Source of the DNA: Escherichia coli
GTDB lineage: Bacteria; Pseudomonadota; Gammaproteobacteria; Enterobacterales; Enterobacteriaceae
Direction: 5' to 3' (one strand)
Assembly (NCBI RefSeq): GCF_003019035.1
Contig: NZ_CP027447.1
Length of the DNA: 64,000 bases
The notes below the pieces were generated by a model. The model had not been told where the DNA came from, did not search any database, and saw only the letters and a list, made by a program, of their open reading frames with translations. Shown piece after piece: positions 52,118-60,513 of this stretch. Both the position numbers and the translations under genes were made by a program. The stretch's first letter is position 1. Every line of letters starts with the position of its first letter.

Positions 52118-52834
52118 TTAGTACAAAAAAGCAGCGTTACGTGATCTTTCCCTGTGTAATCCCCCAGCTAAATCATGAACTTTTTGAGCCATTTTACTTA
52201 ATTCAGGGCAGGCTCCTAAACCTAATGGATCTGTGAAGCAACACGGATTCAGCACATAACCATAAGTGTTTAGTCCACCCAATACACCCAGGGGGTCACT
52301 CACCAGATACATCCCGGTCTCCGGCTCGTAGTACCGGAACCGGTTATAGCACAGCCCTGACTCCGCATCCCGCCACTGCCCCGCATACAGCAGACCGGGG
52401 TCCGCTTCTGCGTCTCGCTCCCCGCGCGGGTCCGGGTAGTCCCTGTCTGCGCTGACGCTGAGTGCCAGCCCCCACAGGCTGGTCTGCTCCGCACGCCACA
52501 CCACGTTACCCTGACTGTTAAAGAGCATCACCGGGCGGCCTGTCAGGTCGCTTACCGCATGGCTGGTCCGCGTCACCCACTGCGGGGCCACGGACGGGTG
52601 CGGCTGCCGTACCCGGCTGAACTGCTGGCTTATCAGCTCAAAGCCGTTAAACACCAGGTACCGCACACTGTACAGTTTATCATCGCGGTATTCCCGGATT
52701 TCCGCAATAGTGTCGCCGTCCCACAGATATGTGATGCGGAGGGCTTTTTGTTTGCAGCGTTTCTCTGTCCGTCTGCCACTGGCGTCGTGGCAGTATTCCC
52801 ACTGCTCACCCCGGGCGCTGCGGTAGCCGATCAC
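52118..52834 (-). pseudogene. Orphan Rhs core-extension/C-terminal fragment, truncated
   Basis: GTG start without RBS; near-identical to residues about 1245-1450 of the upstream full Rhs through DPLGL, then only about 30 divergent residues before reading into IS-adjacent sequence. Confidence 0.6.
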
Positions 52835-52863
52835 GGCTGTCGTGGCGGAACTTTATCTCTTTT

Positions 52864-53253
52864 TTATTTAATCCAGTAAGCTAATCTCTCACCAATCTTC
52901 AAATTTTCTCTTTTGTAATAAAATACAGTATCAAAGTTAATGGATATTTTTTTCGCAATAACTTTGAATTTCAATTCAAATTCCGAATAAAACTCTAATA
53001 CTAACATTTCACGAGCATTGTCAGTGCAACTTGATAGCTTAATAAACTCCTCATTAAGATCGCATGACCAGTCCATAACACCGCTAATATAGCATGGCGT
53101 GTCTATTATTATTTCCAGTGTGTGATAGTAAGAAAGGTCATCACTCCCGGAAATAATCAAGCGATTATGTTCATAAAGAAAAACTGAAAAATCCAACCAA
53201 CTTTCTTTCCAATTATGGTGCTTTATATCATTAATTATGTTTTGCTCACTCAT
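52864..53253 (-). CDS. Putative immunity protein for the Rhs C-terminal toxin
   Basis: 129-aa AT-rich ORF whose start overlaps the rhs stop (ATGA), the canonical toxin-immunity arrangement. Confidence 0.6.
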   Translation of the reverse strand: MSEQNIINDIKHHNWKESWLDFSVFLYEHNRLIISGSDDLSYYHTLEIIIDTPCYISGVMDWSCDLNEEFIKLSSCTDNAREMLVLEFYSEFELKFKVIAKKISINFDTVFYYKRENLKIGERLAYWIK

Positions 53254-58122: not shown

Positions 58123-58584
58123 TCAGCGCGGCTGGTCCTTTTGGATGTCATTCTCCGGTGGCAACGGGGTGAAGCTCTTTATCACCTCCAGCAGCATCGT
58201 CTTTTGACTGTTCTTCAGGGATAAGGAGGTGCTGAAAGTGAAGGTCAGCAGCGTATCTCCACGCCGCTGGAATACGGCTATCTGGCTAATCCGCCCCTGA
58301 TTCCCTTCATCTTCCGGACCGTTCCAGGAATAATCCAGCAGCCAGGCCGGGGCCTCTGCCAGAGTGATTTCCCGGCAGGCATGTTCGGTGTACCCATCAA
58401 GTTTGCCCTGGTACAGCGCCAGCGTTTCCTGGTACAGCTCTGGTGTCAGGGTTCCCTGTGGAACGGCTTCGCGGGTAATGACCAGGTTGATGCCACTGTT
58501 ATCTGTGGACACCAGGACCTGCATTGACTGATCCTGCCATTGAGACGGCAGTTGAATGTGGCCTTCATTAAAAGTGAACTGCAT
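58123..58584 (-). CDS. DUF1795-family effector-associated chaperone (EagR-like)
   Basis: 153-aa ORF between vgrG and rhs, the position held by Eag chaperones for prePAAR effectors. Confidence 0.75.
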   Translation of the reverse strand: MQFTFNEGHIQLPSQWQDQSMQVLVSTDNSGINLVITREAVPQGTLTPELYQETLALYQGKLDGYTEHACREITLAEAPAWLLDYSWNGPEDEGNQGRISQIAVFQRRGDTLLTFTFSTSLSLKNSQKTMLLEVIKSFTPLPPENDIQKDQPR

Positions 58585-58611
58585 AAAATACTCCCTGTTA
58601 ATCTGAGTGAA

Positions 58612-60513
58612 TCAGTTGATGAAAACAGAACCGCCCACGATGGTGATGCCATCCTTCGACAGCCTGATTACCGTCGATTCCCCGACCTGTAGCTGTATGC
58701 CATCCGGCGTCAGCGCAATTTTGCTTTCCTCCACGGCCAGCAAAATTTCCTTAATCGCCGTATAAGCCTGTATACCGTCGCCTTCGCCACCATTGTTTAC
58801 AGCGTCAACATGCACCGAACCGGCAATCGTGCCTCTGTCCTGAAAGACATCCTCAGATAAAGACCCTTTCAGTACTCCGGTGATCTTGTGGCCTTTTTCC
58901 ACCGTAAGAAGGCGGTTACCTTCCTGGATCGTGACCGTCTGGTCATTTTTTACGGTTTCGCGGTGATCGTGTTTTACGGTGGTGGTACGGTCGTTGAGCA
59001 CTTCGGTATCCATGTTCTTCTGCGCGTGGATGTAGACCTGTTCTCTCCCTGTCGCATCATCAAACTTCAGCTCATTAAATCCGCTGCCCATGTACGTTTT
59101 GGAGCGGATGGTCATCTGCGTCTTTGTTCCCGGCAGGCTGCCGGGGGTGCGGTTTTCCTGGTGGTAGGTGCGCCCCATAATGATCGGCTGGTCCGGATCG
59201 CCGTTGAGGAAGTCTACAATCACTTCCTGACCCACACGCGGTATCGCCAGGTGGCCAAAACCGGTGCCTGCCCACGCCTGTGCCACACGGATCCAGCACG
59301 AACTGTCTTGGTCTGCCGGGTTATAACGGTCCCAGTTGAACTTCACCCGCACGCGACCATGTTCGTCGCAGAAGATTTCCTCGCCTGCCGGTCCTGTCAC
59401 GACAGCGCTCTGCGGGCCGTCGACCAGCGGTTTCAGCAACGGCTGTGGTCGCCATGTTCTGTCTGCCGGGATCACCGCAAAATGGTTCTCCAGCGCCGTC
59501 CCCGCTCCCTGCCGTCCTGGCACCGCCTGTGGCTGTTCGCCGTGCAGTTCACTTGCCACCACCTGCCATTCCCGGTTCAGGTTCGCCTGCGGATGCCCCG
59601 TCAGCACAATTCGTCGTCCCGGCCATATCTCCGGCGAGCGACTCATTCCCCGCGCGGTTTCTGCATTGTTTCGCCAGCCGTCCATCTGCCAGCGGGCAAA
59701 GTTCTGCCCGTGGGCACCCTTGAAACGTCCGGGGTAGTCATACACTTCATACTGCGTGCGCTGGTAGTCCTGGTGCTGGCCTTCCTGTTCAAAACGTCCG
59801 GCCCAGCCGGGGCGTTTAAAGGTGTAGTCTTTGGTCACCACGGAAGAAGGGCGGATTTGTGCGCTGTAGCGGAACTGGCTGATGCAGAGGGTGCTCACCT
59901 CGGTACGGGTGTTCGGGTTCCATGGGATTTCAAAAGATTCGGGCAGATGGCGGACTGTGTCGCACAGCACCAGGCTCTGGTCGGTACTTTTGTAAGCATG
60001 CTCCTCATAAAAGAAGATGCCTTCCTCCGCCGCCATCCGGCACAGGAAATCGTAATCAGTCTCACCGTACTGGACACAAAACTCACGGGAAGGATGCGGC
60101 TCGCTGAACAGCGGACTCCATTCGGTCACCCCGTTTTCCTGCAACATCGTGCCGAGGATGCTTTTGATGTCCTCGTTCTGGAAGATACGGAAGTTCTGGC
60201 GCAGACCGGCACGCCACAGCGGCGGGTGCACCTTCATGCTGTACAGCATCTGGTTTTTGTCGTTCTCCCCCAGTTCAAACCAGGTCACCACGCCTTTCAC
60301 CCGGCGCTGTACTTCATCGCCCTGCCATATCGTCAGGTAGGCCATTTTGTCCAGCACCTGCGCAAATTCAAGGGAGAGAAACTGCTGGCTGACCAGGGAG
60401 AGATCGAGGGAAAAGAGCGAAGAGAGTGACTGGTTCAGATGAAAGGAAACCACCGCAAAAGCATCCGGCGGCAGGCCGTCCACTTCCAGTGTGAAACGTA
60501 ATCCGGTTGACAT
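58612..60513 (-). CDS. vgrG: Type VI secretion spike protein VgrG
   Basis: 633-aa ORF with gp27-like and gp5-like domains; SD GGAGG. Confidence 0.9.
   Translation of the reverse strand: MSTGLRFTLEVDGLPPDAFAVVSFHLNQSLSSLFSLDLSLVSQQFLSLEFAQVLDKMAYLTIWQGDEVQRRVKGVVTWFELGENDKNQMLYSMKVHPPLWRAGLRQNFRIFQNEDIKSILGTMLQENGVTEWSPLFSEPHPSREFCVQYGETDYDFLCRMAAEEGIFFYEEHAYKSTDQSLVLCDTVRHLPESFEIPWNPNTRTEVSTLCISQFRYSAQIRPSSVVTKDYTFKRPGWAGRFEQEGQHQDYQRTQYEVYDYPGRFKGAHGQNFARWQMDGWRNNAETARGMSRSPEIWPGRRIVLTGHPQANLNREWQVVASELHGEQPQAVPGRQGAGTALENHFAVIPADRTWRPQPLLKPLVDGPQSAVVTGPAGEEIFCDEHGRVRVKFNWDRYNPADQDSSCWIRVAQAWAGTGFGHLAIPRVGQEVIVDFLNGDPDQPIIMGRTYHQENRTPGSLPGTKTQMTIRSKTYMGSGFNELKFDDATGREQVYIHAQKNMDTEVLNDRTTTVKHDHRETVKNDQTVTIQEGNRLLTVEKGHKITGVLKGSLSEDVFQDRGTIAGSVHVDAVNNGGEGDGIQAYTAIKEILLAVEESKIALTPDGIQLQVGESTVIRLSKDGITIVGGSVFIN

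Follow-up and report, generated by a model that had tools for sequence, protein, structure and literature searches.

The stretch of DNA analysed here, hereafter the window, comprises 64,000 nucleotides of the Escherichia coli contig NZ_CP027447.1. It contains a genomic island that encodes a VgrG spike protein, an Eag-type chaperone, an Rhs protein with a toxin tip and a small protein that we propose as the immunity protein. An earlier note on this DNA had placed the island at positions 52118–60513 and had read it as an effector module of a type VI secretion system (T6SS). Using blastn against the genome of E. coli K-12, we observed that homology to K-12 ends at position 50818 and restarts at position 61272. 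The true island thus spans positions 50819–61271, where 10,453 bp stand in place of 23 bp of K-12, and it additionally includes the insertion sequence (IS) ISEc1 on one side and an AT-rich stretch upstream of vgrG on the other. In K-12, nfrB adjoins cusS with a gap of 149 bp, as that note had stated, and the island is inserted between these two genes. In the window, the open reading frame (ORF) listing gives nfrB at 50676..48439 (minus strand), with nfrA beyond it, and cusR followed by cusS (62710..61250, minus strand). The junction on the cusS side lies inside the 3′ end of the gene (61250–61271), where CusS ends in ...FVIMLPERE compared to ...FVITLPA in K-12.

The five co-directional genes that had been reported for the island are all present on the minus strand. 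These are vgrG (60513..58612, 633 amino acids), the Eag/DUF1795 gene (58584..58123, 153 amino acids), rhs (58103..53250, 1617 amino acids), the immunity gene (53253..52864, 129 amino acids) and an Rhs fragment, which appears as a mechanical ORF of 238 amino acids (52834..52118). The intergenic gaps amount to 27 nt between vgrG and eag and 19 nt between eag and rhs, and both include Shine-Dalgarno sequences. The GC content varies strongly along the island, with 58–65% in the Rhs core, 38–41% in the Rhs tip and the small ORF that follows it, and 28–33% upstream of vgrG. Between ISEc1 and the start of K-12 homology in the nfrB upstream region, blastn against K-12 leaves 45 bp of island-specific sequence (50819..50863, no strand assigned). 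Scans with Rfam and for tRNA genes gave no match inside the island. RefSeq already annotates the island, with product names for all genes.

The product of vgrG (TssI; WP_000103215.1) matches TIGR03361 with an E-value (E) of 8.6e-188 and 625 bits, compared to a cutoff of 186 bits. Its Pfam domains Phage_GPD (E 1e-74), Phage_base_V (E 2.4e-15) and Gp5_trimer_C (E 1.3e-21) correspond to the gp27-like hub, the gp5 OB-fold and the gp5 C-terminal beta-helix that are expected of a VgrG. These matches are far beyond chance, so that the VgrG assignment holds. Among solved structures, VgrG1 (PDB 4mtk) is matched with E 3e-94, and the last 73 residues (561–633) match PDB 3wit, a ‘putative Vgr protein’, with E 1e-37. 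The 633 residues include no toxin extension.

The gene between vgrG and rhs encodes a protein (WP_001160804.1) of the DcrB family PF08786, formerly DUF1795 (E 1.7e-27), in agreement with the DUF1795 chaperone that had been proposed. Furthermore, the protein matches the chaperone EagT6 (PDB 6xrf) with E 1.1e-5. The gene has its own Shine-Dalgarno sequence and lies 19 nt upstream of rhs. It thus neighbours the gene of a prePAAR effector whose N-terminal region includes hydrophobic segments, as is characteristic of Eag chaperones.

The Rhs protein (WP_022645327.1) is a predicted class I prePAAR-PAAR-Rhs effector of 1617 residues. From the N- to the C-terminus, it contains the prePAAR motif, a hydrophobic segment, PAAR stretches, a second hydrophobic segment, DUF6531, YD/RHS repeats, two DPLGL motifs and the toxin domain Ntox30. 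The prePAAR motif AARLGDEIQH, found with a regular expression, occupies residues 54–63 (57915..57944, minus strand) and is also detected as PF25799 prePAAR_I (E 1.1e-4). Hydrophobic segments, defined as Kyte-Doolittle windows above 1.4 in a simple scan rather than with a dedicated transmembrane predictor, are located at residues ~63–107 (TMD1, directly after prePAAR) and 324–343. Pfam PAAR_motif matches residues 266–310 (E 9.4e-9), and a weak stretch is found at residues 132–152. The domain scans suggested earlier thus recovered prePAAR_I, PAAR_motif, DUF6531, many RHS repeats and Ntox30, and the description of a prePAAR Rhs protein with hydrophobic helices was borne out. Between the two PAAR stretches lie ~105 residues (residues ~153–257; 57333–57647), compared to ~11 in Rhs1 of Photorhabdus laumondii, and this insert includes a moderately hydrophobic run, ASLLFPAGPVLMEFATMVGG.

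The shell of the Rhs protein matches YD_repeat (E 2.8e-68) and Rhs_assc_core (E 2.4e-18). Its best solved relative is P. laumondii Rhs1/Tre23 (PDB 7pq5), which aligns to residues 253–1471 with E 1.4e-257. For this relative, a complex of VgrG, EagR and Rhs, the structure of the cage and a double autocleavage have been demonstrated, and the N-terminal cleavage site and a catalytic aspartate have been reported (PMC8636562). By homology to D288-P289/I290 of Rhs1, N-terminal autocleavage is predicted at D393-P394/V395 (56922..56927, minus strand). At the other end of the shell, a regular expression detected the double DPLGL aspartyl-protease motif at residues 1444–1470 (53694..53774, minus strand), with DPLGL at 1444 and 1466. 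The arrangement is the same as in Rhs1/Tre23, and C-terminal cleavage is predicted after L1470.

The Rhs protein might alternatively belong to a classical Rhs element like RhsA-E of K-12, which would have no secretion partner dedicated to it. The layout is indeed that of the textbook: like the K-12 elements with H-rpt, the island combines a GC-rich core, an AT-rich tip with a small ORF downstream, a displaced fragment of a core end and ISEc1/H-rpt. The family assignment is nevertheless refuted, as the Rhs protein reaches 150.9 bits with the NCBIfam RHS_core equivalog NF041261, for which the cutoff is 2000 bits, and we dropped the classical core protein as a candidate on this score; the resemblance in layout stands. 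The protein is, furthermore, only ~33% identical to the classical core that lies beside the T6SS cluster of E. coli SCU-301. It carries prePAAR, putative PAAR stretches and hydrophobic segments, and vgrG and eag directly precede its gene, whereas the K-12 elements have no adjacent vgrG or eag. K-12 is not known to have a T6SS. Judging from these comparisons, the Rhs core is of another lineage than RhsA-E, and we regard a classical element as a highly improbable explanation of the island.

The tip of the Rhs protein (residues 1471–1617; 53253..53693, minus strand) is AT-rich and matches the toxin domain Ntox30 (PF15532, E 2.3e-10). An exhaustive search with these residues resulted in 181 representative clusters. 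Of the 105 matches that we inspected, nearly all have the domain ending within a few residues of the protein C-terminus. Five positions are invariant in an alignment of 55 sequences, namely R68, H70, R92, G106 and H138, which correspond to R1538, H1540, R1562, G1576 and H1608 of the Rhs protein. The tip carries R1538-x-H1540, R1562 and T-H1608-I-P and thereby the Ntox30 signature ‘RxH, R, THIP’, for which a metal-independent RNase was predicted (Zhang et al. 2012, PMC3482391). The toxin most likely acts as a nuclease in the cytoplasm of the target cell; following the sequence prediction of 2012 it may be an RNase, and a DNase is also possible.

The stop codon of rhs overlaps the start codon of the following gene (52864..53253, minus strand, 129 amino acids) as ATGA, as expected from the small overlapping immunity ORF that had been proposed. 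No family of Pfam, NCBIfam or PADLOC matched the protein, and nothing in it indicates export. We found 67 homologs across Enterobacterales, all of which are ‘hypothetical’ or unnamed. The linkage to the toxin is conserved in other taxa: in Citrobacter sedlakii, the homolog directly follows an Ntox30 gene with the identical 4-nt overlap, and on two metagenome contigs it is arranged likewise after an unannotated ORF at the contig end. In Pectobacterium, the homolog lies within arrays of immunity genes that include Imm45, SUKH, CdiI and Imm26. Because of the conserved position after the toxin and the immunity arrays of Pectobacterium, we assign the 129-residue protein as the probable Ntox30 immunity protein, which these genomic contexts support. 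In Pectobacterium parmentieri and relatives (locus positions 600–7400), the arrays are interleaved with short ORFs on the opposite strand that resemble SymE_toxin.

Structural models were obtained for both proteins. The AlphaFold2 model of the toxin has a predicted local distance difference test (pLDDT) score of 93.6, and its fold weakly resembles that of the DNase PT7; the model of the immunity protein resembles PIM7, which neutralises a DNase. PT7 and PIM7 form a pair in Bacillus cereus (PDB 8owu), and the toxin is linked to LXG proteins and the type VII secretion system and occurs in Firmicutes and Proteobacteria (bioRxiv 10.1101/2021.10.19.465003). Sequence similarity between PT7-PIM7 and the Ntox30 pair is undetectable, and searches of PDB sequences with the toxin and with profiles of toxin and immunity protein matched only the DPxGL linker. 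That the two pairs are distant structural relatives is a tentative suggestion from the models, which we consider rather unlikely to be correct. If it were true, this T6SS toxin, which is widespread in enterobacteria, would degrade DNA in a metal-dependent manner and have a fold known from only one solved structure, and the RNase label that Ntox30 has carried since 2012 would be wrong. The structural hint leans towards a DNase and not towards the predicted RNase; DNase activity cannot be transferred from PT7 to Ntox30 on the basis of resemblance alone. It is possible but doubtful that the island combines the delivery module described here with a PT7-related, metal-dependent DNase instead of a metal-independent RNase.

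Next to the immunity gene lies an Rhs C-terminal core remnant (52155..52834, minus strand), which contains neither a toxin domain nor an immunity gene. It is similar to rhs (53764–54298) over 535 bp at 87% identity, has 80% amino acid identity to the main core and matches Rhs_assc_core with E 1e-19. The remnant keeps 21 residues past DPLGL, after which the end of ISEc1 follows (52154); the sequence beyond these residues is the end of an IS element that occurs alone in thousands of genomes. RefSeq annotates the remnant as a pseudogene with both ends missing, and the ORF listing contains no immunity ORF downstream of it. Of the orphan Rhs tip described in the earlier note, the fragment homologous to the core is thus present and the toxin tip is not, as ISEc1 cuts the fragment and no immunity gene accompanies it. 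We dropped a functional orphan toxin/immunity cassette as a candidate because of the ISEc1 truncation at 21 residues and the missing immunity gene. To judge from its sequence, the remnant is the leftover of an earlier tip displacement and dead as a toxin. The first DPxGL motif of the remnant has changed to DPLGV (52287–52300; residues 179–183 of the orphan), which is consistent with decay. In the rhs-main/rhs-orphan locus of Salmonella Typhimurium, said to have been described by Koskiniemi and colleagues in 2014, the orphan reportedly retains its toxin tip in full, along with an immunity gene. The island resembles that locus in having, after a main rhs gene, a fragment homologous to the core with which this gene could recombine; unlike the orphan there, the fragment here ends in an interrupted tip.

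ISEc1 (50864..52154, minus strand) is an element of 1291 bp that belongs to the ISAs1 family and is known as the ‘H-rpt’ of Rhs elements. Its transposase gene (52010..50874, minus strand, 378 amino acids) is intact, and the product matches NF033564 with E 1.4e-124 and 415 bits, compared to a cutoff of 70 bits. The terminal inverted repeats read CAGGGAAAGAT..., with repeats at 50853–50888 and 52130–52165, and RefSeq names the element at the equivalent site of strain EC20 ISEc1. We found no target-site duplication around the element: the two flanking sequences, GGATTACA and CGTTACCC, are not the same, which is compatible with a deletion next to the IS or with a rearrangement mediated by it.

As the earlier note had observed, T6SS core genes are missing from the window: positions 275–43602 are collinear with K-12 except for one IS110 replacement, and no T6SS gene is annotated in the matching K-12 stretch. 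We looked for a T6SS in close relatives. The closest complete genome is that of SCU-301 (99.7%), with differences that are mostly short indels. It contains a T6SS cluster at aspV, ~330 kb away from the island, with tssA, B, C, E, F, G, H, J, K, L and M, tagH, vasI, two hcp genes, a vgrG and a classical Rhs gene. In the SCU-301 assembly, tssH, the cluster vgrG and the cluster Rhs gene are flagged as frameshifted or partial. In strain ECONIH1, the coding region of the island is near-identical and every core gene of the aspV cluster is intact. The ECONIH1 cluster lacks its own vgrG and rhs, and IS3 and IS256 sequence follows hcp (268365–270700). Besides the island, that genome contains one other vgrG-like locus, and the lineage may have only two spikes at its disposal, one of them the island VgrG. 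Compared to the VgrG of the SCU-301 cluster, the island VgrG is 84% identical over the first 426 amino acids (91.5% at the DNA level) and diverges beyond, a pattern that fits a paralogous spike with its own cargo.

We next compared the nfrB-cusS junction across strains, a comparison that had been suggested together with the original description. At least 80% of the length of the island is present in 942 of the 5426 complete E. coli genomes, and the same combination of tip, immunity gene and remnant is present in 120 of them, whereas 2326 have an empty junction of the K-12 type. Degraded versions also exist: EC20 has ISEc1, an Rhs fragment of 444 amino acids with a metallopeptidase tip and the AT-rich stretch, and no vgrG. 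Relative to genomes of the sequence type 648 (ST648) lineage, only 8 positions are different in the coding part of the island.

Such degraded versions raise the question of whether the island could be a silent relic, either unexpressed or residing in a strain with no working T6SS. In some lineages, such as EC20, vgrG, eag and the greater part of rhs are gone from this site, the island is flanked by an IS element and the dead Rhs remnant, and the AT-rich upstream stretch is of a kind often silenced by H-NS, a link that we infer here. Furthermore, in the assemblies of ST648 and SCU-301, rhs carries a frameshift flag from NCBI's Prokaryotic Genome Annotation Pipeline (PGAP). These flags look like sequencing errors. 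In the ST648 assembly, homopolymers are longer by a single inserted base at 57958 (in rhs) and 51838 (in ISEc1), after which PGAP calls rhs and the transposase ‘frameshifted’; for SCU-301, the many short indels relative to the window are the source of the same calls for rhs and the ISEc1 transposase. The ST648 insertion in rhs may alternatively reflect slippage at the A6 run that immediately precedes the codons of prePAAR. Because of this homopolymer and indel pattern and the intact island ORFs in the FDAARGOS_497 and ECONIH1 assemblies, we set the frameshift flags aside as evidence for decay. Frameshifts in vgrG or rhs, which together with a genome lacking any T6SS core locus had been named as the mark of a relic, are absent from the window, where both genes are intact. 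The window and those two assemblies carry intact copies of all four functional genes, the candidate catalytic and processing motifs are all kept, and the T6SS core in ECONIH1 is intact. We thus consider a relic improbable.

The AT-rich island-specific stretch upstream of vgrG (60514..61271, minus strand) comprises 758 bp at 28–33% GC, of which 736 bp form the gap between vgrG and cusS and 22 bp overlap the 3′ end of cusS, whose stop codon lies at 61250. It presumably holds a promoter or regulatory region. A promoter-like site is found at 60872–60845 on the minus strand; overall, promoter-like sites are not above chance. The stretch is identical to that of SCU-301 (100%), 99.7% identical to EC20, a strain that lost vgrG, eag and most of rhs, and only 76% identical to the ST648 lineage, while the coding part differs from that lineage at the few positions given above. 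This suggests recombination or separate histories of the putative regulatory part and the coding part of the island.

Taken together, the observed gene order, the intact ORFs, the domain and motif content, the linkage of toxin and immunity gene and the T6SS core in close relatives lead us to conclude that the island is very probably an auxiliary effector module for a T6SS encoded elsewhere in the genome, with a probable nuclease toxin and its own immunity gene. The genes vgrG, eag, rhs and the immunity gene form one operon-like unit, and in close relatives the T6SS is the T6SS-2-type cluster at aspV. By homology to characterised systems, an Eag dimer would cover both hydrophobic segments at the N-terminus of the Rhs protein, and the prePAAR-PAAR part would cap the VgrG trimer in the assembled complex. 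On contraction of the sheath, the spike would be propelled into an adjacent bacterial cell. Self-cleavage of the Rhs shell is predicted after P394 and L1470, whereby the Ntox30 toxin of 147 residues would be freed within the cage. In the cytoplasm of the target the toxin would act, likely as a nuclease, and the 129-residue protein would protect the producer and its kin by neutralising it. The Rhs remnant and ISEc1 would be debris of an earlier tip replacement with no toxin function.

Several points weigh against this conclusion. The PAAR match is split by ~105 residues, and NCBIfam T6SS_PAAR_dom reaches 39.5 bits compared to a cutoff of 124 bits. For Ntox30, the literature accessible to us contained no experimental activity data, and a review of 2023 still lists it among the families awaiting characterisation; a fold comparison of the toxin model against the PDB gave no solved structural relative. 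Promoter and terminator scans of positions 50600–61400 yielded counts no higher than in shuffled sequence, and we therefore make no regulatory claim. The T6SS status of the strain is inferred from its relatives, since our data cover 64 kb of its genome. Lastly, the T6SS of enterohaemorrhagic E. coli is described as repressed in vitro (PMC13141884).

The island is a member of a published class, which is summarised in PMC6730261. According to that source, E. coli modules of the order vgrGO1-eagR/DUF1795-PAAR-Rhs-CT-immunity have ten tip types, CT1–CT10 (Ma et al. 2017, Environ Microbiol 19:345). Of these, CT5–CT8 are called putative RNases there, and CT1, CT3 and CT5 were tested, with delivery requiring vgrGO1, eagR and T6SS2 (ClpV2). 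Species, gene order and protein families are alike in these modules and in the island. The metallopeptidase tip annotated at the nfrB-cusS site in EC20 and O157:H7 strains corresponds in general activity to the MPTase4 domain of Rhs-CT1. Our literature search found no relevant paper on vgrG and Rhs at cusS. The island also shares its layout of prePAAR, TMD1, putative PAAR, postPAAR, shell and toxin with VgrG-EagR-Rhs1(Tre23)-Tri23 of P. laumondii (PMC8636562, PMC8661411), including the double DPLGL, the aligned D-P site at the N-terminus and the order vgrG-eagR-rhs with an Eag gene. In contrast, the P. laumondii locus lies inside a T6SS core cluster and encodes an rRNA ADP-ribosyltransferase, whereas here a separate island encodes Ntox30.

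Outside the island, the window differs from K-12 at further sites. At 7108–9092, between ybbP and selU, ~2 kb stand in place of the 7.3-kb RhsD element of K-12 (rhsD, ybbC, ylbH, ybbD). This segment contains a transposase gene of the IS110 family (7340–8320; IS621-like, RNA-guided) and an Rfam match to an AgrB-like antisense RNA (8947–9035). At 43524–44406, the tRNA-Arg(TCT) gene argU is directly followed by envY, and the DLP12 prophage and ompT of K-12 are absent. In addition, Rfam matches the enterobacterial small RNA STnc480 at 22057–22123, between glxK and allE.

The island is thus known biology that is common in the species and correctly annotated except for the immunity gene. The ‘hypothetical protein’ of 129 amino acids can now be annotated as the probable Ntox30 immunity protein. 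As an interchangeable toxin module against neighbouring bacteria, the island bears on the competition between strains in the gut, including those of the ST648 lineage, where this version is common.

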